NCBI GenBank assembly: GCA_034226945.1
Contig: CP120453.1
Location: 1,550,001 to 1,577,656, forward strand
Length of the DNA stretch: 27,656 nt
Origin: Picochlorum sp. SENEW3
Lineage: Eukaryota
Direction: 5' to 3'
Position 1 is the stretch's first letter. Every line of letters starts with the position of its first letter. The position numbers and the translations under genes were made by a program. The notes beneath the pieces are model-generated. The model was given only the letters and a program-made list of their open reading frames with translations. It ran no database searches and was not told the origin of the DNA. This document shows positions 11,898 through 27,656 of the stretch, one piece after another.

Positions 11898-13901
11898 ATG
11901 AGAGGACGTGTCTTTGGTGCTGGTCGAAGCCTTCTGTGGTCGCTGTCCTTTGAAAAGCAGAGGGACGTTGTGCTGAGCCGATGCACATTTTCGTCCTACA
12001 CTTCAGCATCGAGCAGTGCAAGTGAGAAGAAATGGGCTTCTTGGTCTTTGGGAGCCCTCTGTGCAGGCCTGGGAACATTTGTATGGGGAGCCTCTGGCAA
12101 ATCCGAGTGTGCCATTCCCATTGGAGAGAATGGTGCAACAGCGCCGGCGGTGCAAGTCGATGGCTGTGATACATTCGATCACGTCATTCTTGGAGGAGGG
12201 ACCGCTGGATGTGTGATTGCATATTTGCTGGGGAAATGGGTGGATGATCAAAAGATCAATGCCAATGTTCTTCTGGTGGATGGTGGACCTGGATTTGAGA
12301 AGGCAAACCCGGATCTGCTGGCGTGGTATGATATGTGGGGTGAGTTTGGAAAAGTGCACGAATCCCAATATGCGGGAGATGGCACCAATAGGACATCGGT
12401 GTACCCAATCACCCCATCGGACCACAGGGGACTCGGAGGCTGTGGAGCGCATGATACCAGGATTTACTACTTGCCGAGCGAGAAGGAGCAGCACGAATAT
12501 GCCAAGACATTTGGTTGGAGCCTCGGTGAGCTGAGGGAATACATGCAGACCGCAATGAATCTGGAGCCAGCCATCAAGGCATGCCCCCATGGTGAGGACT
12601 ACTTTGATCTGGTGATCAAGGAGCTCTCGGAAAGGTCTGGGCTGAAGAGGCTTCCCGATGACAGATTTTATGGCAATGTAGTTGCAGACTCTGTAGCATA
12701 TTTCGATGTTGGCGGGTATGCACTATCCAACACTCGGGGAATCAGATGGTCGCCAGCAATGTTGGTCAATAGCGCAGATGATTCGATCCGACCTAAATCC
12801 CTCAAAGTGCTGACAGGAGCAGAGATTGAAGCAATTGATTTTCGAAAGGGAGATCCGACAGTGGTCGAGGGTGTGAGGACCAAGGTTGATGGGGAACCCA
12901 AGCACATTCGTCTTGCTGATAAGGGAAGCGTCACCCTCTGTGCTGGTTCGATAGGGAACTCTGCAATCTTGCAAAGATCGGGAGTGGGAGATCCGCAGAC
13001 TTTGAGGCAAGTGGGGATCGAGCCGGTCTTACCGCATCCCGAAGTGGGCCATGGGGTTGATCACGAAGAGATTGCAGTTCAGTATGCACCTCCCGCCAAG
13101 TGGCCTGGTGGCACCATGCCTGCTGGTGGTGTCATGGGCTGGGCACTGGGTATTTTTAAAAGTCTACCGGGACTCGAACAAATTATGCAAGCGCATTTCA
13201 GCATCGCTGGACCTCCGTATGACGATGAGGTGACTGTTGTTGGAACGCCCAACAATACCAAGCCAGACCAACACAAAGGATACAGAGTACAGATCCAATC
13301 ACCATCTTCTGATGAGGCAGCAGTTCTCAAATACGAATACAGTTCACATGAGCGAGAGGTATTCCTCAAGGGGCTCCGAGAAATGGTCGGGATGTTTGAG
13401 AAACTGAAGGAGGCAGGCTTGGTGGGCGAACGGGTAGCTCCACCGCGTGATATTGACTTGGACGACGACAATGCTCTATGGTCATGGATCCATGATAACA
13501 AGCACACGGCGTACCATTGGCTTGGGACGTGCAAGGCGGGTCTCAGGGGAAAAGTCACACCAGGCTCTGTAGTAGATGAGACCTTTCGCCTCAGGACAGG
13601 AACTGACCAAGAAAAAGTTGTTGATAATCTGTTCCTGTCGTCTGCCGCCGTACTACCCTTTCCACCGACGGCAAACCCCCATATAACGATCCAGTCGTTC
13701 GCTGTGGCGGAGGCCTGGCAAGCATTCCAGCACATGGCAAAGATTCGTGGAATTCACGCACAGTTGCCACAAGAGCTGCAGACCGCCAGGTCGCAATTGA
13801 AAAGTGATAAAGGACAGCTCCGGGTACGGGGACCTGGAGAAGAGAAGCCTAACATTGGCCAGGTGGCCAAGAGATATTTTGATATGCATCAGCAGCAGTA
13901 A
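11898..13901 (+). CDS. GMC-family flavoprotein oxidoreductase, choline-oxidase-like, with mitochondrial-type presequence and hydrophobic segment; intronless
   Basis: ILGGGTAG dinucleotide fold, GLGGCGAHD, LCAGSIGNSAILQRSGVG, VDHEE, TAYHWLGTC, ANPHIT. Confidence 0.88.
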   Translation: MRGRVFGAGRSLLWSLSFEKQRDVVLSRCTFSSYTSASSSASEKKWASWSLGALCAGLGTFVWGASGKSECAIPIGENGATAPAVQVDGCDTFDHVILGGGTAGCVIAYLLGKWVDDQKINANVLLVDGGPGFEKANPDLLAWYDMWGEFGKVHESQYAGDGTNRTSVYPITPSDHRGLGGCGAHDTRIYYLPSEKEQHEYAKTFGWSLGELREYMQTAMNLEPAIKACPHGEDYFDLVIKELSERSGLKRLPDDRFYGNVVADSVAYFDVGGYALSNTRGIRWSPAMLVNSADDSIRPKSLKVLTGAEIEAIDFRKGDPTVVEGVRTKVDGEPKHIRLADKGSVTLCAGSIGNSAILQRSGVGDPQTLRQVGIEPVLPHPEVGHGVDHEEIAVQYAPPAKWPGGTMPAGGVMGWALGIFKSLPGLEQIMQAHFSIAGPPYDDEVTVVGTPNNTKPDQHKGYRVQIQSPSSDEAAVLKYEYSSHEREVFLKGLREMVGMFEKLKEAGLVGERVAPPRDIDLDDDNALWSWIHDNKHTAYHWLGTCKAGLRGKVTPGSVVDETFRLRTGTDQEKVVDNLFLSSAAVLPFPPTANPHITIQSFAVAEAWQAFQHMAKIRGIHAQLPQELQTARSQLKSDKGQLRVRGPGEEKPNIGQVAKRYFDMHQQQ

Positions 13902-13981
13902 GTGCACCTTGAACAATTAAGCATGTCTTCTTTTTGCATTTCAGAGGATGTACAATGCAATTCATTCATTCATTTTTTGTG

Positions 13982-13986
13982 TGTAA
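13982..13986 (+). promoter_or_regulatory. Candidate TGTAA chlorophyte polyadenylation signal of the GMC gene
   Basis: TGTAA 80 nt after the stop codon; UGUAA is the established green-algal poly(A) signal. Confidence 0.45.
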
Positions 13987-14019
13987 CTAAAATGATGACA
14001 TTTTAGTTTCATACTCTGG

Positions 14020-15310
14020 TTATGAGGTCACATCTCGTTGCCAGAAAGCACGCTCACATTTATTTTTCCCACAACGGCGTACTTTTCAGCGCTTGTGAAG
14101 CCCCATGCCAATTGGGGGAGTTTCCAATTTGGCATGGCAGCCTCAGCAGTACTGGCCACTTGGGAATTCATCAATCTCAAATCTATGAATCCCTCCAAGA
14201 TCCGAAAATCCCATTGCTCTATCCAGTTATCTATGATGTATCCCTGCAGGATGAATCAAGCAGTGCTGAGATCCAACTTGAGCTTCACTTCAGAGAAGTT
14301 TGTGTGCATTATATCCAGAAGAGTCTTATCAACAAGTGATTCTGGCTTGACAGTATTTTAAATATTGAAAACGATGCGAAATCGCTTGCTTGGATAGAAT
14401 CAGGATCAGCTTCGACCTCAGGTAAGGTGACTAGATTCCATTGTATTAGGAATGAAACAACACCACTGCCGAAGCAGGTCCTTGAGGGCTCGAAAGCAGA
14501 TCCTTTCTGTACCGTGTTTTCCTGAATCAATCAAGGCGTTCCCAAACACAACTACAGTCCTGCTCTGAGTCTCCCTGTTCTTTGTCACACAGATCCGTTC
14601 AACCATGGAGTCCAGCATTCGTTGCGTCTTTGTGTACACAGAGAACCTTTGCCTTCGGAAACAGTTCTGGGAAAAAAGGCATAAACTGTTTTCAGGTGGC
14701 TATTATTCTCCTTACATAATGCAAGCACATCTACTGCTGTTCTGACTTTTCTGGTGGGTGCCTCCTGTTTCCATGCACCTGTGCCTGACCTGCTCTGCGT
14801 CCATACCTGTTCCAATGCCTTTCGCTTGAGGACGCCCGCACGTGATCGCATCTCGTGGTTGCTCAAGCTCACCGTCCCGAAAGGTTTGTAGTCTCCATGT
14901 CGCTTGTCCTCCTCACAAAGTATCCTCATTTTGCCCTGATCCAGCTTGATGCCCACAGATGATGACTAGAGGGGGCCTGGATCAAAAACCCATGCGTTGT
15001 CAGGCGATTTGGCCAGCAGTTCTTTTGCTCTGTCCAGGTTCCCTCGACTGGGAGTATTCAGGGACTTTTGTGTACGTGTTCCTGCTTTATTTGTTGGTTT
15101 TCGTTTTCTCGTTTTTTCCTTTGAAGACTCATTCTCCTTCTGTGCCTCCTTGTCTTTTCTCCTTTCCTTTTTTTCCTCCTCATCGGCTTCAATTTCTGCG
15201 TCCGTCTTCAGATGATAATATTGCAGCGACACGTCAACACCGTCAGTGGACAGTTGATCTCCAAACAGCCACTGGTGTCCATCTTGGCACTTCCTGACTT
15301 TGATATAAAC
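14020..15310 (-). pseudogene. Fanzor1 (TnpB-related RNA-guided RuvC endonuclease) pseudogene, N-terminally truncated
   Basis: Reconstructed order: FGDQLSTDGVDVS (TDG 15247-15239); WVFDPG (RuvC-I D 14983-14981); FRRQRFSVYTKTQRMLDSMV; VVVFGNA...G; EIDEF (RuvC-II E 14169-14167); C*GC...CGKNKC (Cys 14148, 14139, 14073, 14058); FWQRDV (RuvC-III D 14034-14032). Lesions: stops at 14968, 14145, 14088, 14022; frameshift at the A6 run 14672-14677; ~272-bp insertion. Confidence 0.88.
14179..14450. other. ~272-bp insertion of unknown origin interrupting the Fanzor gene just before RuvC-II
   Basis: Removing it fuses LLRQWCCFI to EIDEF in frame; boundaries uncertain by a few bases. Confidence 0.6.
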
Positions 15311-15512
15311 CCTTGCCCTTTGTATGGTCAGTCGGGAGTCATTGGGCAGGCGCCTGCTACCGGGGAACTGACCATGACTTTGCTGCGTGGAATGCTGACA
15401 TTAAATGAGATTTTTATTAGAAATTGAATTCCAAAGGTGGTGGACATTGTATAGCGTTGTCAATCTAACCCGATCGATGTAGTTGTTCTGTTGCAAACAG
15501 ACCCTGTCCATC

Positions 15513-16200
15513 ATGCCTCGTTGCACAAACTGCGGTCGACAACGTGAAAAAAATAAAACCAGGTTTTACAAAGGCCGCCGAGTATGCCATCAGTGTATGA
15601 GCTCTCTTTTGCGGAGTGAAGGTTGGGCTCTATCACCAACCCTTGCGGGGCGAGGCAACAAGGGTGGAAAGCAGAGTGGTGACAATGGTGATCATGGTGG
15701 TGATGAAAATTCCAAAGACAGAGTCCCCTCGATCGCTGATGGTGCTGACGGTGACACCTCGAGTGAGGGTGTCACCCTGGACTCTGTCGAATTACCTCCT
15801 TCTATGTGGGATGGTGGCCGTGCGATCCAGTGGCTAGAAGCATACAAACGAGAGCTAACAATCCAGCAGCAGGAGAACCAACAATATGAGATGCTGTAGA
15901 CAACTGTTTACACTGTCTCAAGAGGGATGAACACCGCGTACGAGTCTTGGAAAATACTGTGGTGGCGATCCGGCCCATACATGTAACTGCATTTTGTCTG
16001 CAGGGATGAAAATGCCACGACAGCGGGCCGTTCACATCTGCTGCGACTGGACAGTACTTGAAGTGGCGGTCACACATCTCACATGCGCATGACATTGACA
16101 GATGAGCGGATACAGCCACCCATGAATGCATGCCGGAATGGCTCCTTCCGCTTTTGGTCCATTGGGATCTTCCAAATATTTTGGTGGATTAGAAGGCAGT
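15513..16200 (+). pseudogene. Degraded Cys-rich gene, possibly the N-terminal/CxC part of a KDZ (Kyakuja-Dileera-Zisupton) transposase
   Basis: N-terminal CTNC-x17-CHQC and an acidic linker; in another frame from ~15976, HTCNC...RQRAVHICCDWTVLEVAVTHLTC...HP*MHAGMAPSAF with several stops. Confidence 0.35.
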
Positions 16201-19042
16201 CGGGAGGCCCCTGCGGCAGTAGTGATACTGAGAAGTTGTTCAGTTTGTCAGAGGAATCCTGGCAACTTCCCCTACCCTATATACCCCAAGCCATCATCTG
16301 TCCAACAGAACCAGGACGGTGGCCATCAGGTTCTTTGATGCATATTGTCTGAGCATTGGCGTATTCCGTGGCATATTTGGAGAATATGGCATGGATTTGT
16401 CGAAAACAAAAGATTCATGGATCGGAACATGAGATTCTCTGTAATTGAACACAATAAAAAATTGTTACCTTTCAGATTTAACGACAATTTTAAGGAGGAG
16501 TTGAGTCAAAGTGAGTGAGTGACTTATTCTACTATCCAACGGGTCGACGGACCGGACCACTGTGCATATCCGTGGTGGTGCCAAAAATCTCCACGCTGGT
16601 GTCACTTTTTTGTGCAGAACTGTCCACTTTTGTCGCGTGGTCGCCTTTTTTTATTGTGTCTTTTTACGGACGGAGAAGTAGTACTAGGCGTGATGTCTCC
16701 GGTCGAGTCGATGATAGGAGCGGACAGTTCAGTTTTAGTGACCGTGGTTCTACTAGCGAGCTCAAATAGCAAGCAAGCTCTCTTTTCCTCTGCCCCATAT
16801 ATTGTTGCCGGGCAGCACTATTACTCCTCCTCTGTGTACATATCGCTGTTACATGGTTTATGTGTCCACAGTTTTGCGAGCCGACGACAGATACTCCTCT
16901 CCTCTCAACACGCAAGCGTGGCATTCGTACCAACACAGACACACAACCATTCGCTTTCCTTGAGGTTTGGAGTAGTCTGCCGTCTCCTTGATTTGATTCA
17001 TCTATATTGTGAAATAACAATCAACGATCGAATCATACAGAAACCCACCATAAGAAGGTCCTGGACGTCGGGGCATGTTGCCAAGGCGTTCCACTGGAAC
17101 GATCGGGGACAGGTATCTCTCTGTGGACGTGGCCATCGATGGGTAGCATTCTTGATTTATAGTATAAATCTATGAATACTAGTAATCGTTCTTCTTGCCC
17201 CTGGGGAGCGACCCTCTCTCCAGGCCTCCTTGGCCCAACAGCTGTGACGCGAGAGGATTTCACGATGTAGGACATTCGACACGGTGTCCACAGGAATACA
17301 CCATCTGCGGCACGTATAATGTCATATTTGATTAGAAGTCATATATTTAATGCCAAATAATCTGTTTTCTTCTCTCTCTCTCGACCGAGGGTGTGGGACC
17401 ACCTCGGTCGTTGCAATGCCCAGGGCTCGTGGCTGTGGGTCGGGCTGGCATAGCCAAGGCCTTTTCAACCACCCTGAATGTTGAAATACAACAGAATAGG
17501 TTTTGTAGGCGTATGAATGAATACGTTATCCGCCTCGCATGATTTGTCGTGGTGGTGGATTCTGACGGCAGAATTCTCTCTCCTCATCCGTCTGTCTGGA
17601 AGATTATTTATCGGTCCGACAGGACACTGGACCGGCTCAATACACGTTCGCTATGGGCTGTTTCCCCTTTCTCTCCCTAAATGACCACAATAAAAAAACA
17701 GGACCTTGAGAATCGAACCCAGTCCGCAGTCATATTTTTTTATTCATTATTTTACGGAATGCAAAACGTCTTGTGCGTAGCATCTTCGGTGCAACCGATC
17801 GGTAGACCGGACTATGGTGCAAATCCATGGGCCTTGTGTAGGCACTCTCCCCTCCTCTCCTCCTCTCGAGAGGTGTATCACTTCTTTTTCTCGCACTCTG
17901 TTTCAGTGGTCGCCCTCCTTGTTTCCTTTATTGTCACTGGTTACAGACGGACACGAGCTGTAGGCATGGTGCACACGGAAGAATGTCTGGTTCGTGTTGG
18001 ACACAAAGCAGAAGAAGCCAGTCACCTCGTTCTAGATGGCATTCTGACAAATTCACACCAACTCTCCCAGCATTCAATGCTCGTCATTCATTTTGTTGTC
18101 TATCTTTTTGTACGAGGATCTACGACGTGGTGGTATTGTTTCCGTAAAGCCAGGCGCGTTTTTTCTCTTGCTGTTGCTGTGTCGTGCAAAATTCCAAACA
18201 CATGATGTGCATGTTTGCTTGTGCGTCTCCACAAGCAAGGGGGGATGCTGGACGACCCCCTCAATTACCTGTATCAGCGTCTGGTCCACTGTTTTGATAT
18301 CTCATGATATAACAATAGAGGACACTGGACTGCGATGGATGGGGCCGATTCCGACACGTTGCTGTCGTTGGCTTGTTGTTGGTGTGATTGTGGTCTGTCG
18401 ATTCTCACAGGCAGATGAGAGACACAGCGCCAGTCCCTTCCAAGAACACACACTCTCTCTCTATGTTTTATCCTTCTTCTATTGAGTGTTGGACTGCTCT
18501 ATCTTCTGGTAGTAGTAGTGGTGGTGGTGGTGGTGGACCCTATATATATTCACACGTTGTCCTACTTACCATACGATAGAATAGTTCGATTAGAACACAT
18601 TTTTTGATCATTCGTGTTATTCTTTTATCTTCTGAATCCACCAATCAGTGTGTGTGTGGAGATATGAATGGAGCTGTTTCGCTGTTTTGCTTGTTGAGTC
18701 TGTGGATAGCGGGTGAGCACACATTGTGTGCTATTGCTACTCCTGTCTTTGTTGTTTCTACATCTGGAGCAGCAATGGCAGTGATTATTGTTCTTTGTTT
18801 TTAGTAGTAGTAGTAGTAGTACTAAACCAATAGTAATACAACTATTACTATTGGTTGTAGAAAAGAAGACGAACAAAAGGTGTAGCTCTTCAAAGGTCTT
18901 TTTTATCCTTCTCCACAGGGAGGGTAGATAGACTGAAGGCATCGGTCCGACGGCGTTTCGGACCGGTGAGGTCGGCCTTTTTTTTCTTTTTTCGGGCGTG
19001 TCCGTCCGTAAATGAGGACAATAAAAATGTATGACCACGACA

Positions 19043-19260
19043 AAGTAACCTGCAAGTATCCAGCAAGTAACCGGCAAGTAACCGGCAAGTAACCGACAAG
19101 TAACCTGCAAGTAACCGGCAAGTATCCGGCAAGTAACCGGCAAGTAACCGACAAGTAACCGGCAAGTAACCGGCAAGTAACCGGCAAGTATCCGGCAAGT
19201 AACCGGCAAGTAACCGGCAAGTAACCAGCAAGTAACCAGCAAGTAACCAGCAAATAACCT
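19043..19260 (+). repeat. 11-bp minisatellite (AAGTAACCGGC), ~20 copies
   Basis: 19 full units plus one partial; variants AAGTATCCGGC, AAGTAACCGAC, AAGTAACCAGC, AAGTAACCTGC. Confidence 0.97.
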
Positions 19261-19687
19261 TTTGGTCGGGTTTTTTTATTGTACTCTATTCCGGAAGGCA
19301 ATCTGGCGACAGGAAGACTTTCCGGTCGCCCACAGGACACGACCACATAAAACCGCCTCAACAACAGATAGCAGCCATCAGCGCAAGATGAGAGCCTTGC
19401 GCTCCCTGTGGGACATGTATGATGTGGGATTTGCGGGGCTACTATATATACTAATAATTCATCCAAGAAGCCAGTAAGATCATTTGTCACACATTCAGGA
19501 AGACCAACCCACGCGAGGAGTGTGCTCACGCATTCGAGACAACGACGCGAATCTCCCTCAAACATACAGTCACGTCGACTTTGGATTTGTCTGCTTTCGT
19601 GACTTGTATTCAACACTGTGTTAGAACACAGTCATCAGAAGAAAGAGGCCTCAACATCGCGGCTCCGGAATGGTTGTGACTGTCATT

Positions 19688-21700
19688 GTTGTCATGACAT
19701 TCCCGTGGAACGGTTGTTGTTGTTGGAACCCTGTTGTGCTCCGTGGTGGTCGGCCATTCGCTCTTATGACTAATAAATAATTTTAAACCAACAATGACGC
19801 TCCCCTATGCCCACAAAGGAACGATTCTGGGCGTCTTCGTCCCAACCGTCGCGACGCGATCGGAGTGGACCAACGTCGGTTGGTGAGGTCCATTCGACTC
19901 GGCGCCGATGTAAATAGCCCTTAATAATGTTATATTTGTCCAATCATCCAATACCAACAACCAATACTGCTATGCACTGCAGGTGAGTGGTGGCAAGGGT
20001 ATGGGATCACCGAGGCCACATGATGCGTCGTGTGCAAGAAGGTGGCTGAGTGCGTTTTCTGTTCAGGGCCACATCTGCGGTGCTGCTACCAAGTGTTCTA
20101 TGTATCCAAAGAAACTATGGAAGGTGCCAAATGGTCCATTTACACAGCAGGGACAATGGATGAGGTCGGGCTTCTAATTTTTTCCAGGCGTGTCCGTCGG
20201 ACGCGTCCGTCAATGAGGACAATAAAAAAGGATGACCATCAAAACCACACGCTTTAACCGCTCGGCCACACTCAGCGTGCTTTTTTTTCATCTCCCATCA
20301 CAACGGAGTTTTGACCGGTGGTGGTAGTTTCTTTTCGATGTTGGTTTCCCTTCTCCGATGGAAGACCCCTTCTGATGGGAGCGCCTGGATATGTGGAGCA
20401 CACAGCAGTCAGGAGGAGAGCTGATGAGCAGTCTTTCTTTGCTGTAAAAACACGACGAGATCTTCCCCATTCAAAGACGCTGCGCAGTTCTATACTACTA
20501 TTACTATCCTAATTGCAACTCATGAAGTCTATGTAAGTAAGTAAGTACGCGTGCCTCGCATGATGATGATACTGAGAGATGCTCCAGCATTGCAGCTGCT
20601 GCAATGTTCCTCTGGTGCTTATCTCAGCTTGCTTGTTGTTGTTGTTGTGAAGACGACGATTTCTTTTCATTTTATTCTTGTTTCATGTCTTCTATTTATT
20701 CTTTTTATATTTACTACTACTATTATACCTCTCTCTATCTCATATGTTGTCTGTGTAGGGTAGCTCCTTGTTCTTCTTCTTGTGTGCATGAGACTTGTGT
20801 GCTTTGTTCTGTTCTGTTATTATTGGTTGTTATCGTTGCTCGTGTCGATTGTTGTGCATGTTATTATCATTATTACTACTACTACTATTATGAGATATCT
20901 ACTTTCTCCTTTTGATTGCTTTGCTTCTTTGTTGGTGTGTTGTCTCATGTTCTGTAGCAGCAGCAGCAGTAGTAACAGTAATAGTAGTAGTAGTAGTGGT
21001 GGTGTATGCTGGATGGTTGTTGATTTATTGTATTCTTATTGTTGTTGTTGTGTAGGGTGGCTGTTTTCTACACCCTTGCTTGGTTTGGTTGGAATGTTTT
21101 TGGTGGTGGTCCCAGTCAAGTCAAGGGGTGATGGGAAGATCGCCATTCTTGTTGTTCCGAGCTGCTCCCTCTTCTTCAGACATGTGGCAGCAGACCACTG
21201 TTTGTTTTGCACTGGGTGTGCGACGCTTTTTTTTAATGATGGGTGTTTATTATTATTATTATTATTGGTATTCTTCTTACTTACTTACTTACTTAATATT
21301 GTGTCCTTCTGTTGATGCTGCTGTTGCTGTTGTGAAGAAGAAGACAGAGATTCTTTTCATTCATGCATAGCATAGCATAGTATAGATTGTTGTTGTGTCA
21401 TTATGATTATTATGAGATTTTCATCTTTTGATTTTGGTTTTGCTTTGCTTCTTTTGTGTTGGTTGCTGTTGTTGTTGTCTTCTCTTGTTGTAGTAGTAGT
21501 AGGAGTAGGAGGAGGAGGAGGAGGAGCAGTAGTAGTAGCAGAGCTTGTGGTGTGCCGTGTCTTTTGTTGTTGTTGTTGTCGTTGTATATATAGTATAGGT
21601 GGTTATTATACTACTACTTATTCTTCTTGATATTGTATTGTATATTCTGGTTCTTTTGGTGTTGTTTTTGGATGTTTTTTTGGTTGGTGTGTTTTTTTGG
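19688..21700 (+). repeat. Segmental repeat unit, copy 1 (complex head plus GT-rich simple-repeat tail)
   Basis: Colinear similarity to 25783-27375 from GTCATGACATTCCCGTGG through TTTTTTGGTTGGTGTGTTTTTTTGGT. Confidence 0.85.
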
Positions 21701-21759
21701 TAAAGGGGGGTCCATAACCTCAAACTTTTGGTTTCAGCCATAACTGGTGATCTTTGGTA

Positions 21760-22596
21760 CACGATTGTGGGCGCGTGAGAGCTTTTTTCTCTAGTCTGTC
21801 GCTTTCAGGCACCTCATATGGATGTAATTCAAAAAGACCTTTCTCGGATTTCCCAGATTTTGCGTGACCGATCATCCAGGGAGGGGTGTGTCTGTGAGGC
21901 ACTTTTGCAACGCTTGGGGCACGATTGTGGCCGCCTGAGGGCTCTGCTCCTTGGTTTGTCGCTTTCAGGCACCTCATATGGATGTAATTCAAAAAGACCT
22001 TTCTCGGATTTCCCAGATTTTGCGTGACCGATCATCCAGGGAGGGGTGTGTCTGTGAGGCACTTTTGCAATGCTTGGGGCACGATTGTGGCCGCCTGAGG
22101 GCTCTGCTCCTTGGTTTGTCGCTTTCAGGCACCTCATATGGATGTAATTCAAAAAGACCTTTCTCGGATTTCCCAGATTTTGCGTGACCGGTCATCCAGG
22201 GAGGGGTGTGTCTGTGAGGCACTTTTGCAATGCTTGGGGCACGATTGTGGCCGCCTGAGGGCTCTGCTCCTTGGTTTGTCGCTTTCAGGCACCTCATATG
22301 GATGTAATTCAAAAAGACCTTTCTCGGATTTCCCAGATTGTGCGCGACCGGTCATCCAGGGAGGGGTGTGTCTGTGAGGCACTTTTGCAACGCTTGGGGC
22401 ACGATTGTGGCCGCCTGAGAGCTCTGCTCCTTGGTTTGTCGCTTTCAGGCACCTCATATGGATGTAATTCAAAAAGACCTTTCTCGGATTTCCCAGATTG
22501 TGCGCGACCGGTCATCCAGGGAGGGGTGTGTCTCTGTGAGGCACTTTTGCAACGCTTGGGGCACGATTGTGGCCGCCTGAGAGCTCTGCTCCTTGG
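21760..22596 (+). repeat. 160-bp tandem satellite, subfamily A, ~5.2 near-identical copies
   Basis: GCTTTCAGGCACCTCATATGG recurs at 21801, 21961, 22121, 22281, 22441. Confidence 0.98.
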
Positions 22597-22627
22597 TAAA
22601 GGGGTGTTCAGAACCTCAAACTTTTGG

Positions 22628-22975
22628 CTTGGGGTCACTTTTCTGGCCGCGTGAGACATCTTCCTCTGCGTCTGTCGCATTTAGCAGGCTTGTATATATA
22701 ATATCTCAAATGCCCTCTCCCGGATTCGCCATACTCGCGACGACCGACCAGATAGCGAGGGGTGGTTGAGAAGACCAGTGCAACGCCCTTGGGGTCACTT
22801 TTCTGGTCGCGTGAGACATCTTCCTCTGGGTCTGTCGCTTTCAGCAGGCTTGTATATCTAATATCTCAAATGCCCTCTCCCGGATTTGCCATACTCGCGA
22901 CGACCGACCAGATAGCGAGGGGTGTGTCTGGGAGTCACTTTGCAACGCTTGGGATACGAGTGTGGGCACGTGAGC
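22628..22975 (+). repeat. 160-bp tandem satellite, diverged subfamily B, ~2.2 copies
   Basis: CTTGGGGTCACTTTTCTGG at 22628 and 22788, CTTGGG at 22948; shares TGTCGCTTTCAG, CGGATTT, GAGGGGTGTGTCTG and TTTGCAACGCTTGGG with subfamily A. Confidence 0.85.
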
Positions 22976-23421
22976 ACTATATCGTCGCGTCTATGGTGCT
23001 ACTAAGCCTTATATGTATCCGAAAAACATATGCAAGGAGCCAGATGGAGCATTTACATGGCGAGGACCCACCTTGGCCATCGCATGTTTTTGTAATGGTC
23101 CAGGAGTCAAAGCACAAGCAGTTGCCTCAGACTCGAAGGTTGAGAGCTTTTACTCGTGGTCTGCCGACTTTAGGCATTTCATATGCACTTCAGGAGAAGA
23201 AACAGCAGTGTCAAGAGAGTTCCCATTATCCCTTGCCGTCATTCGGAGTAGTAGTTCGCGTCGCATTCACCACCAATGCTCACAACAGAATTCGCAACAA
23301 GCTCTGGGCAAAGCAACGCGTGTGACTTTGATTGTTGGAGGGAGAAATATATATCAATATAAGATAGTAGAGGGTGCGAACCAACTTGACAAGAGTTCGT
23401 GGCTGTTTGGCACTGTTGTAC

Positions 23422-24680
23422 TTGTTGTTGACATGACATTCCCGTGGAACGGTTGTTGTTGGAACCCTGTTGTGCTCCGTGGTGGTCAGTCGTCGGCTCT
23501 TTCGACTGATATATAATTTTAAAGCAAGAATGACGCTCCTTCATGTCCATGGAGGACGACTCCAGGCCTGTGCTAGTCCCAACCGTCGCGACGCGAATGG
23601 AATCGACGACCGTCGGTTGGCGTCGAAACTGACGCGGTGACGACGGAGAGACCCTCAATGCTGTTTTAATTATCCATTTATTCAATATTAACCAATATGG
23701 AGCACCGTTTCTTCGGCAGTGCGTGGCACCGCCTGGGCCAACGCGATGTCATGGTTCTGTGGAAGGCGGTGTCAACTTGGTCTGGAACAGTCGAGAGATA
23801 GCCGCAGTATGCTGAGTATGCACAACAACCATAGGAAGGGACACCTTATACTCTAACCTATTCGGGCTGGTTCCTCCTTGTGTCGTGAGGACAACTCCAC
23901 ATGCTTTGCTCGTTCTCTCAACCCTTCGGTCCGACAAAGCCCCAGACCGTTGGCATGCGACCCGTAGGGGAGTCGGGTCTCTTTGGTCGTGCTCTGGTGT
24001 GGTGAATGTCCGTAAACAAACACAATAAAAAAGTTGAACCAAGTTGAACTCCGGTCTCCTCGGACGTAGTGTTCGTCCGTGAATGAGGACAATAAAAAAT
24101 GACGACCATGGGCCAGAGAGCCCACACGCTTTCACCGCTCGGCCACACTCATCGTGCTTTTTTCATCTCCCATCACAAGGAAGGTTTGACCGAGAGGATA
24201 TCATCGTGATGTTTTCTTATTCACAGCTCTCCCCATCCAAGATCTAGTCTGATGGGGGAAAAGCCTGGGTGTGGAGCACACACAGCAAAGCCAGGAGGAA
24301 GAGGGGAGAGCTAAGGAGCAGTGTTTAAAACACGACGAGATCTTCCCCAAAGAAGCGTCGCAATTGTATATATATAGTACTATCCTACTATGCTCATTGC
24401 AACACATGTAGTCTAAGTAAGACAACGTGCCATGCATACTGATGACACTGAGATAGTTGCTCCAGCATTAGTGCAACGTTACTCCAGTGCTTGCCTCACC
24501 TTGCTTGCTTGTTGTTGTTGTTGTTGTTGTTCTTGTTGTGAAACAAAGACAATACTTTTTTCATTTTTTCTTGTCTCATGTCTTTTCATATACTTCTTAT
24601 TGTACCTCTCTCTACCTCATATCTTGTCTGTGAGTCTATCTCCAGGTTCCTATCTTCTTCTTGTGTGTGTGTCTTTGTGT
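23422..24680 (+). repeat. Segmental repeat unit, copy 2 (partial, with a different middle ~23640-24070)
   Basis: 23422-23620 matches 19688-19880; 24075-24680 matches 20205-20780 and 26441-27035. Confidence 0.85.
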
Positions 24681-24684
24681 TTCC

Positions 24685-25205
24685 GAGTGGGTCGGGGACT
24701 TTTCGCCGACGGGACGCGGGATGGTCGCCTTCCGGCCCGGTCCGATCGGGCCTCCGACCGGACCTCGCGATCGATCTGAACAACGGTTAGGGCAATGCTC
24801 CTCGCGGAGCGCTTAGGGTTTTCGCGACGGCCCGTCGGGCCCCGAGGCCGCCCCCGCCCCGGGTTTCCACCCCCTCTCCGGCCCGTACACTTTTTCACAT
24901 CCATACGGTTGGCTGGGGCCGGCCGGCGATCCCTGATTGTCCCCCACCCAGCCTCCAGCGTGTTTTGAAAATTTTCTGTCAGCGCACGGATGGCCACCTG
25001 CGCCCCCTCTGGCACGCGTGCGCCCCATTCGGCCCGCCCTGATCGCTGTGGCACATCCCCACCACCGCATGGATGCTAGATCGCCCGCCAGCAGGGGGCG
25101 GGGGGCGACTCACGAAGCCAACAGAAGGGATTTGCACCGCCACCCTCCTCCCTGCTGCTGGGACATGGTTTTCCCCCGCGCGAGGGGGTATTTTTGGGGG
25201 GGAGA
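24685..25205. other. GC/CpG-rich non-coding island with many short inverted repeats and two TTAGGG motifs
   Basis: Abrupt compositional shift; TTAGGG at ~24787 and ~24813 (the latter a telo-box AAACCCTA on the minus strand); no credible ORF. Confidence 0.6.
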
Positions 25206-25420
25206 GATGTGACATTCGAGCATCTTGTATGGGTAGGTAACCCAGGGATCCACGAGAAGGAATGCTTGATTGCTGTGTTTCAGTCACCCCCCTCCACAGC
25301 AGCAGCATTGCCTTCTGCCATCAAATACCACCTCCTCCCAAGCCTTGGAGCCTTTCCAGTGCACCCGAGTGTCCCCGTCGAGCTCGCTTTGATATTTATA
25401 TTACGATTGGGATCATTGAC

Positions 25421-27375
25421 AACCAGCAGCACGACAAGGAGGTCCTGGACGGCGGGGGTTTGTTGCGAGTGTTGTCATGACATTCCCGTGGGACAGGTTG
25501 TTTGGACGCTCTTGCGCTCCGTGATTGTCGCCCATCGGCTCTTTAGACTGGAACATATTTCTAAAGCAAGAATGCCGCTCCTTCATGCCCATGGACAGAC
25601 GATTCCGGGCGTGTTCGTCCCAACCGTCGCGACGCGATCGGAATCGACGACCATTCGGTTGGTGAGATCCATTCGACTCGACACCTGCTGTACTGAAATG
25701 GCTCTTAAGTATTGTTCTGAGATAATTGAAAACCAGAAGCACGACAAGGAGGTCCTCGACGGCTGGGTCCGTTGCGAGTGTTGTTGTCATGACATTCCCG
25801 TGGGACGGGTTGTTGTTGGAACGCTGTTGCGCTCCGTGGTGGTCGGCCATTCGATCATTTGACTCATATGTAATTTAAACGTAAGAATGACGCTGCATCA
25901 TGCCCACAAAGGAACGATTCTGGGCGTGTTCGTCCCAACCGTCGCGACGCGATCGGAGTGGACCAACGTCGGTTGGTGAGATCCATTCGACGCGGCGCTG
26001 ACGTTAAAAACCCTTAAATATGTTTTGACTCGTTTTTCCAATCATCCATTACCAACAACCAATGCTATGCACTGCCGGTGGGTGGCAAGGGCGTGGGACC
26101 ACCGAGGCCACATGATGTGTGTTGTCATGGCTCGGCAACGAGCCTCGCTCAGCGAGGGTATCAGGGTCGGAAGGTACCCTAGAGAGGATACAAGGAGGAA
26201 GAGGCTGCAAGGCGGGTCTTATAGATCACCTCCCGGCGAGCTTCCAGCGCTTTTTTCACTCAATGTCTGTTGTCGCATGTGTGCAAGAAGGTGAGTACGT
26301 TTTCTGGTTTGGGCCACATCTGCCGTCCTACCAAGTGTTCTATGTATCCAAACAAACTATCCAAGGTGCCAAATGGTGCATTTATATAGCAAGGACAGCA
26401 GCGATGAGGTCAGCCATGTTTTTTCTTTTTCAGGCGTGTCCGTCCGTAAATGAGGACAATAAAAAAGGACGACCATGGGCCAGAGAGCCCACCCGCTTTC
26501 ACCGCTCGGCCACACTCAGCGTGCCTTTTTTATCTCCCATCACAAGGGAGGTTTGACCGAGCGGATATCATCGTGATGTTTATTCACAGCTCTCCCCATC
26601 CAAGACCTCGTCTGATGGGGAAAAAAGCCTGGGTGTGGAGCACACAGCGAAGCCAGGAGGAAGAAGAGGGGAGAGCTGTGGAGCAGTCTTTAAACACGAC
26701 GACATCTTCCCCAAAGAAGGGTCGCAATTGTTGTATCTATATATTACTATCCTACTATGCTCATTACAACACATGAAGTGTAAGTAAGACAATGTGCCAT
26801 GCATACTGATGATACTGAGATGATTGCTCCAGCATTAGTGCAACGTTACTCTAGTGCTTGCTGTTGTTGTGAAACAAAGACAATACTTTTCTCGTTCTTT
26901 CTCGTTTCATTTCATGTCTTTTATTTATTCATTGTTTTCATATATTATACTACTATTACTATTACATCTCTATCTCTCTCTCATGTGTTGTCTGTGAGTC
27001 TCTCTATCTCCAGGTGTTCTCTTCTCTTCTTGTGTGTTTGGTTGTGTTGTGTCCTGTTCCTGTTATTGTTGGTTGCTTGGTCGTGTCGATTGTTGCTGTG
27101 TATGTTCTTATCATTATCATTATCATTATCATTATCAATGCGGAGTATTATGAGCTATTTTCTTTCGATTGCTTTGCGTCGTCTTTGTTAGGGGGTCTGG
27201 TCTGCTGTTTATTTTGGTGTAGTAGGAGGAGCAGATCTTGTTGTGTGCCGTGTCTTTTTTGTCCTTGTTGCTGTATATATATAGGTGCTTATTATACTAC
27301 TTTTTCTTCTTTCATATGTTGTATATTTTTGTTGTTTTGTTGTTTTTTTGGTTGGTGTGTTTTTTTGGTTAGGGT
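25421..27375 (+). repeat. Segmental repeat unit, copy 3, whose ~310-bp head is tandemly duplicated (25421-25730, 25731-26040)
   Basis: AACCAG(C/A)AGCACGACAAGGAGGTCCT at 25421 and 25731; the remainder is colinear with copy 1. Confidence 0.85.
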
Positions 27376-27656
27376 ATTTTGGTCTTGTTGGTGGTGTTTT
27401 TTCTTGGCTTTATTTTTGATTTTTTGGATATTTTCTTATTTTTGGGTAGTTTGTATATTATTTAATTTAGAAATCGTGTTTATTTTTCTGCGAATGCGGT
27501 GGAAGTGGGTGCAATATGTGGATATATACCCTCATTACCCTCCTGCCAAGGAACGACGGTATGCACAGGGTATAGGGTATAGGGAGCAATACGTAACTGA
27601 ACGAAGTACTGATTGTGTTTGTTAGTCGCTTTTTTGGAATTTTTTGGAATTTTTTT

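Follow-up and report, generated by a model that had tools for sequence, protein, structure and literature searches.

A Fanzor gene in decayed form lies on the minus strand, at 14023..15304, of a 27,656-nucleotide stretch of the Picochlorum sp. SENEW3 genome (contig CP120453.1, positions 1,550,001 to 1,577,656 of the forward strand; hereafter the window). Fanzor proteins form the eukaryotic branch of the TnpB superfamily. With a probability of roughly 90%, the locus is a pseudogene: a Fanzor copy that is truncated at both its 5′ and 3′ ends, disrupted several times between them, and most like Fanzor1. By tblastn and alignment, it corresponds to residues 51-378 of P0007, an uninterrupted open reading frame (ORF) of 413 residues from a public sample, and is spread over three frames with a 273-bp insertion inside.

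The minus-strand homology to P0007 consists of three open pieces, each in its own frame. Piece A (14672..15304, frame -2) aligns with P0007 residues 51-253 at 47.6% identity and carries the TDG motif, a charged insert, the DPG motif and an in-frame TAG. It reads IKVRKCQDGHQWLFGDQLSTDGVDVSLQYY (which includes WLFGDQLSTDGVDVSLQYY), a Lys/Arg/Glu-rich stretch, NAWVFDPGPL, the TAG, and then SSSVGIKLDQ...SLSNHEMRSRAG...TVYAFF. Piece B (14451..14675, frame -1), which covers residues 253-327 at 68% identity, contains a helical region and VVVFGNA; it reads FSQNCFRRQRFSVYTKTQRMLDSMVERI...RTVVVFGNALIDSGKHG...LKDLLRQWCCFI, and is also quoted as FSQNCFRRQRFSVYTK...VVVFGNALIDSGKHG...LKDLLRQWCCFI. After 273 unrelated bases follows piece C (14023..14178, frame -3; residues 328-378), with a putative alternative RuvC-II Glu, the zinc finger and RuvC-III. 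This piece reads EIDEFPSGQYC(TGA)GCHAKLETPPIGMGLHKR(TGA)KVRRCGKNKCERAFWQRDVTS, includes GCHAKL, and ends in TAA. When P0007 is compared to the whole window by tblastn, exactly three segments fall below E 0.1, with summed E-values of 1e-76 and 1.7e-17; the latter is the value for piece C alone (67% identity), and the next-best match in the window has E 0.13. P0007 itself is uninterrupted across every break, where it reads DPGPSGHVG, GFYSQNCF, CCYIEVDEFRSSQYCCAC and HKRWKV.

The window copy keeps the same motifs as P0007, all on the minus strand. The TDG motif (WLFGDQLSTDGVDVSLQY, 15239..15247), a putative part of the WED domain, aligns with WMFDNAVVTDGVSISFQV of the Guillardia theta Fanzor1. 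Between TDG and DPG lies the Lys/Arg/Glu-rich insert (EEEKKERRKDK...TRKRKP, 15095..15181), which has a similar counterpart in P0007 and could have acted as a nuclear localization signal. The DPG of RuvC-I occupies 14975..14983, with its Asp codon at 14981-14983. In FGNA (14535..14546), a Gly (14541-14543) stands 41 residues ahead of the zinc finger and at the place of the canonical TnpB RuvC-II Glu, an equivalence drawn by comparing motifs by eye with the Fanzors in Table S2 of PMC10711439. DEF (14164..14172) would supply the alternative RuvC-II Glu (14167-14169), six residues ahead of the first Cys of the CxxC: the window reads E, FPSGQY and then the C of the zinc finger, and P0007 reads E331, FRSSQY and then C338. 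RuvC-III reads CERAFWQRD, with its RDV at 14029..14037 and the Asp codon at 14032-14034; homology to all relatives stops one to two bases further on, at 14027/14028. The corresponding geometry of P0007 is D153 (DPG, 153-155), G297 (FGNA), E331-x6-C338xxC341, C362-x4-C367, seven residues, and D375. Assignment of the Asp, Glu and Asp residues to the catalytic site was made by motif rather than by fold and should be read as a prediction.

These pieces had been recognised in an initial annotation made from the letters alone. All of those that it quoted lie on the minus strand and were transcribed accurately, and each of the three joins that it proposed (across the TAG, the frameshift in the T-run and the insertion) is read through by the intact P0007. 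The charged insert that it described is present, and its claim of an intact RuvC triad agrees with the motif assignment.

The ancestor of this relic would have been a transposon-carried gene for an omega-RNA-guided double-strand DNA endonuclease. The ancestral enzyme would have had the rearranged RuvC site that typifies Fanzors, composed of the Asp in DPG, a Gly at the canonical Glu position, the alternative Glu, and the Asp in RD. The window copy still encodes the three predicted catalytic residues, yet the protein cannot be made because of three stop codons, a frameshift and the 273-bp repeat insertion. This copy is also without the N-terminal lobe and without everything past RDV. As the 3′ break falls directly after RDV, any guide-RNA-encoding region is gone as well. 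A present function of the relic is not expected.

Relatives and family assignment

A HMMER search with pieces A and B (X at the TAG) against 1.84 billion representative proteins returned four matches at E <= 0.001, all of them short and all from the same family. Two of them are P0001 (171 residues, 89% identical) and P0002 (88 residues, 99% identical). P0004, the C-terminus of which reads EFRSTQYCCAC...HKRWKVRRCMNNGCERVFSQRDVNAAINLAKFF, served as the query of the longer-protein search that found P0007. Word-index searches returned no match for pieces A and B among longer proteins, and only P0007 itself when P0007 was compared to proteins of near length. The cluster of P0003 contains a Picochlorum oklahomense transcript; P0003, P0005 and P0006 represent a related copy in the poly-A transcriptome of that species, 70% identical over 64 residues. 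The transcript copy loses the Fanzor frame after residue 81, and a decayed copy is therefore transcribed in P. oklahomense.

Placement of this family within the TnpB superfamily draws on domain models, a structure match and motif geometry. P0007 passes Pfam PF07282 (Cas12f1-like TNB domain, the TnpB zinc ribbon) with 27.0 bits against a cut-off of 26.3 (E 5e-6), and P0004 reaches 19.7 bits (E 9.6e-4) with the same model. The NCBIfam model NF040570 (guided_TnpB) matches P0007 at E 7e-5. When a family profile (alignment A2, 6 rows) was compared to 177,635 PDB sequences, two matches were obtained at E <= 10. The better one, and the sole nuclease of the two, is the Guillardia theta Fanzor1 (9cer; E 0.0049), matched in three colinear stretches; among the parts covered are the TDG motif, YSQNCFRRQRFSVY, and the zinc finger together with RuvC-III. 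In the ESM Atlas, the look-alikes of P0007, which serve as leads rather than tests, are Chlorophyta, Nucleocytoviricota and Mucoromycota clusters that carry PF07282 and/or PF26935 (DUF8286); the outcome is the same whether the whole of P0007 or residues 40-320 alone are used.

The motif geometry is that described for Fanzors. In PMC10711439, the Fanzor signature comprises a RuvC-I motif DPG and a Glu placed six residues ahead of the zinc finger; according to PMC10530073, the canonical RuvC-II position is taken by Gly or Pro, and a nearby Glu compensates. P0007 and the window both have the DPG, the Glu six residues before the CxxC, and the inert Gly. The RuvC-III Asp is expected 4-8 residues past the second Cys pair, and in P0007 seven residues separate C367 from D375.

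Several observations weigh against the assignment. P0007 exceeds the Pfam cut-off by just 0.7 bits, and its NCBIfam score of 22 bits is far under the model cut-off of 100. None of five window pieces searched against Pfam at E <= 10 matches a nuclease family, piece C with X at its stops included; piece C likewise has no match in NCBIfam, and phmmer against the PDB gives a Fanzor or nuclease match for none of three pieces. The window's own pieces thus match no TnpB or Fanzor model, and family membership therefore rests on P0007. P0007 in turn falls outside the strict pattern DPGx(120,160)Ex6CxxCx(12,18)CxxCx(4,8)D and conforms to a relaxed form only: its DPG-to-E distance is 175 residues instead of 120-160, its Cys pairs are 20 instead of 12-18 residues apart, and the second of them is Cx4C instead of CxxC. 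In PMC10711439, this pattern was devised to find prokaryotic TnpBs with Fanzor-like sites. An AlphaFold2 model of P0007 from the 6-row alignment is unusable (mean predicted local distance difference test score 33.6, predicted template modelling score 0.24). P0007 also has 69 residues ahead of TDG, as against about 395 in Picochlorum sp. BPE23 entries, of which Table S2 of PMC10711439 lists four as Fanzor hidden Markov model hits (KAI8106033.1, KAI8102625.1, KAI8107949.1 and KAI8112075.1; 731-803 residues). Finally, a demonstrably full-length member of exactly the P0007 sub-family was not seen.

Some of these points would also suit a TnpB-superfamily relic outside Fanzor1 proper, either from another Fanzor clade or from a compact lineage of about 410 residues that never had a long N-terminal lobe, a reading that we regard as improbable. 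The link to Fanzor1 consists of an E-value of 0.0049 to one structure together with feature-based look-alikes; P0007, at 413 residues, has little sequence before TDG; and the Atlas clusters closest to it are 307-359 residues long. Opposed to this reading, the TDG motif and the YSQNCFRRQRFSVY stretch are colinear with the G. theta Fanzor1, and P0007 has no Pfam match to PF01385 or PF12323, which we take to be the families typical of TnpB and Fanzor2. Moreover, the same TDGVSV lies near residue 400 in the BPE23 Fanzors, which suggests that P0007 is a 5′-incomplete ORF. Of the initial annotation's case for a Fanzor1 architecture, the Fanzor order of motifs (DPG, FGNA, DE before CxxC, RD) is upheld; the step from Fanzor to Fanzor1, which depends on weak E-values and feature-based look-alikes, is tentative. 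The profile comparison that it proposed came out favourably for P0007 and gave no match for the window's own pieces.

A further reading takes the N-terminal piece (WLFGDQLSTDGVDVSLQYY and the acidic insert) as an exon of a GOLD-domain gene, with the later Fanzor-like motifs arising by chance. It originates from the phmmer search of pieces A and B against the PDB, where the best match is the GOLD domain of ACBD3/GCP60 (E 0.0054, residues 15-100). This match leans on the low-complexity Glu/Lys stretch, and the N-terminal piece is contiguous with RuvC-I in P0007. The reading was ruled out, at a negligible probability, by the Pfam result (no GOLD family at E <= 10), by the lack of GOLD among the three PDB matches of P0007, and by the alignment of the same residues with the G. 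theta Fanzor1.

Lesions and other copies

Seven lesions separate the window copy from an intact Fanzor gene. On the gene's strand, the first is the 5′ truncation, where homology starts at about 15304-15306; the first ORF of the relic, of 144 residues, has no Met. The second is the in-frame TAG (14966..14968), two codons past DPG, at which P0002, from another data set, also terminates. The third is the loss of one base in a T6 run (14672..14677), which puts pieces A and B in different frames. Here, P0001 reads TVYAIYSQNCF in one frame and is continuous across the join (...TVYAIYSQNCFRRQRF...), and the frameshift between A and B is thereby proven.

The fourth lesion, the insertion of about 273 bp (14179..14451, with base 14451 countable either way), splits CCFI from EIDEF. 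Two in-frame TGA codons follow in piece C. One (14143..14145) lies inside the first CxxC, where other copies have TGC (Cys) and both P0007 and P0004 read CCAC; the other (14086..14088) replaces a codon for Trp in the relatives. The seventh lesion is the 3′ truncation at 14027/14028, directly past RDV. In the initial annotation, the TAG, the frameshift and the insertion were identified correctly, the two TGA codons appeared as '*' and went uncounted, and the truncation of both ends was missed.

The inserted segment is a dispersed repeat and not an intron, because the same segment (14181-14456) occurs between unrelated flanks in a 1897-bp contig of run X8. The intron reading was rejected on two further grounds: the segment is not bounded by GT..AG when read on the gene's strand, and runs labelled 'DNA?' contain copies that are free of it. 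The summed depth of the segment is above that of the single-copy flanks. On the gene's strand, each end of the segment has a TTCAT, perhaps a target duplication; by eye, no terminal inverted repeat was seen in the segment.

Independent samples contain the same lesions. Logan contigs of four runs were aligned to 13900-15520, giving 37 records for X2, 19 for X8, 36 for X10 and 4 for X16. The first three runs are DNA metagenomes, of which X2 is independent and not the one that contains the sequence best, and X16 is an RNA library. Contigs of X2 are identical to the window over 14644-14764, which contains the T-run, and over 14040-14203, which contains both TGA codons (0 differences in each case). 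A further X2 contig (14384-14627, 2 differences) bridges the insertion junction at 14451/14452, and another (14748-15520, 3 differences) spans the TAG region and the 5′ flank. Contigs of X8 and X10 likewise bridge the 14451/14452 junction and both outer flanks. In all three metagenomes, contigs cross 13900-14069/14186 and 14748/14773-15520 at about 97-100% identity. The same relic is therefore present at the same place in several populations.

The same runs also hold more intact copies. On the plus strand, T>G at 14143, which restores TGC, accounts for part of the depth in X2 and X8 and all of the depth in X10. T>C at 14086, which restores TGG, accounts for 519.1 of 552.3 summed depth in X2, 21.2 of 21.2 in X8 and 56.3 of 56.3 in X10. 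Other copies have one extra base at 14671-14679, and others skip the insertion, passing from 14178 to 14452 (X8, 142 letters on the shorter side) or from 14178 to 14454 (X10). Loose ends in X2 and X8 ahead of 14028, read on the gene's strand, translate as NAAINLAKFF, as in P0004 and P0007. The suggestion that more intact copies exist elsewhere was thus borne out by P0007, by the sense codons that form the majority in other copies, and by the four BPE23 entries.

Over 14010-14120 and 14450-14780, the summed depth of the contigs reaches about 4-16 times the flank value; this is only a sign of several copies, as depth is not equal to copy number. In the three DNA metagenomes, contigs also link 14059 with 14630 across a gap of 570 bases, with CCATTG at the join and 22 letters on the shorter side; this weakly evidenced join may be an internally deleted derivative copy. 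Scans of viral_contigs and metagenome_contigs for the DNA of further copies returned no locus. Among the four contigs of the X16 RNA library, two have 95-99% likeness and none bridges a diagnostic junction by 31 letters; they are not taken as evidence for transcription of the window locus.

These data bear directly on the proposal that the gene is live, its apparent stops and frameshifts being due to errors of sequencing or assembly, to introns or to recoding. One lesion does fall in a homopolymer, a classic site of error; Fanzor genes can contain introns (PMC10530073); and the related P. oklahomense copy (P0005, P0006) comes from a poly-A transcriptome. However, the lesions are seven and separate, with truncation at both ends among them, and the X2 contigs match exactly over the T-run and both TGA codons and continue across 14451/14452. 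The TAG recurs in P0002, the insertion is without intron ends and is found elsewhere with other flanks, the first ORF cannot start with Met, and the P. oklahomense transcript is itself frameshifted past residue 81. A live gene is accordingly very improbable.

Genomic setting

The host genome is nuclear and belongs to a green alga of Picochlorum type. The region from 1 to 14 kb is gene-dense; its nuclear genes are unremarkable and encode IspG/GcpE, an adenylate-kinase-like protein, a Bud32-type kinase, a REX4-type exonuclease, an M20 peptidase and a GMC oxidoreductase. By exact look-up, four of eight neighbour proteins share a cluster of at least 90% identity with named proteins of Picochlorum. 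The relic lies in a 1.6-kb spacer after the GMC-oxidoreductase gene, tail-to-tail with it (GMC stop at 13901). A 16-nt inverted repeat (13979-14014; 88% complementary, 4-nt loop) is located between that stop and the 3′ break of the relic.

The position in this spacer raises a last alternative, in which the relic has been co-opted as a terminator, 3′ untranslated region or regulatory spacer between convergent genes, and has been kept for that reason. This truncated copy, between the same flanks, does occur in three metagenomes at about 97-100% identity, and the 16-nt hairpin lies beside it. Yet any old neutral insertion is expected in closely related strains, and Rfam has no match across the whole window; co-option is hence given hardly any weight.

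Beyond the relic, the 12 kb from 15400 to 27656, directly past the gene-dense 14 kb, may be a repeat-rich chromosome region. Long ORFs between 15.4 and 27.6 kb have no Pfam match (19 of 19), and no transposase domain or carrier element was recognised there. A 160-bp satellite at 21760-22597 (5.2 copies, 97% matches) is followed by a second 160-bp unit at 22628-22924 (1.9 copies). An 11-bp tandem repeat (AAGTAACCGGC) at 19043-19259, with 19.7 copies, is the source of the repeated LLAGYLPVTCR reading in ORF lists. A small plus-strand ORF at 15513-15896 (128 residues) starts MPRCTNCG...CHQC, with two CxxC pairs, and is located beyond the Fanzor homology, whose limit is at about 15306; it has no Pfam match, and its exact sequence is absent from the protein collection.

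Known systems and meaning for Picochlorum

Among known systems, the relic most resembles Fanzor1, represented by GtFz1 of G. theta (PDB 9cer) and SpuFz1 of Spizellomyces punctatus (PMC10432273), in the order of its motifs (TDG, DPG, Gly, alternative Glu, RD) and, for GtFz1, in the three colinear alignment stretches. In contrast to GtFz1, the window copy is a pseudogene without the N-terminal lobe, the C-terminal tail and the guide-RNA region; the similarity is weak (E 0.0049 from a 6-sequence profile), and the second Cys pair here is Cx4C. The BPE23 Fanzors come from the same genus as the window's neighbour genes, and their RFGC.I.TDGVSV motif resembles WLFGDQLSTDGVDV of the window. They differ in their 731-803 residues and in the long sequence before TDG; these comparisons cover their first ~400 residues. 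The BPE23 proteins may form a different sub-family from the window copy and P0007.

With prokaryotic TnpB of IS200/IS605 and IS607 (PF07282, NF040570), the family shares the C-terminal zinc-ribbon/TNB domain and, in P0007 and P0004, RDxNAAxN at RuvC-III. It differs in having DPG in place of D-hydrophobic-G, a relocated Glu and a eukaryotic host, and P0007 has no match to N-terminal TnpB families. Multi-copy Fanzor repeats of sporadic occurrence in small green-algal genomes offer a further parallel: CrFNuc of Chlamydomonas reinhardtii, a Fanzor1c in Helitron2 (PMC10530073), and the commonest repeat of Auxenochlorella (PMC12633428). Unlike in those cases, a carrier transposon, Helitron or other, was not recognised around the window relic. 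PMC12633428 describes green-algal Fanzors as sporadic, in C. reinhardtii, Chloropicon primus and Auxenochlorella. Picochlorum, Chlorophyta and Trebouxiophyceae are absent from the searchable supplementary files of PMC10432273 (one scanned PDF was unsearched), and Picochlorum, Trebouxiophyceae and Chlorella are absent from the supplementary files of PMC10530073.

It is conceivable, if unlikely, that Picochlorum populations carry a still-active Fanzor1 lineage of the P0007 type, with a complete D-E-D site, a zinc finger and about 70 residues before TDG. Such a lineage would be either a minimal Fanzor without most of the recognition lobe or an intron-split gene. In that event, the several-fold excess of the 3′ core in the three metagenomes would be due to full or cut-down copies that spread recently.

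The locus itself is a dead, previously unannotated copy of a known kind of element, relics of which are already known from green algae, and in this respect the result is ordinary. It demonstrates that a Fanzor relic missed by domain models (Pfam, 0 of 5 pieces) can be recognised from its motifs alone. It also adds one unannotated dead copy to Picochlorum, a genus whose Fanzors have so far been listed solely in a supplementary table. Picochlorum is a fast-growing alga of use in biotechnology. A native RNA-guided nuclease family in this genus could have practical interest, which attaches to the intact relatives rather than to the neutral remnant described here.

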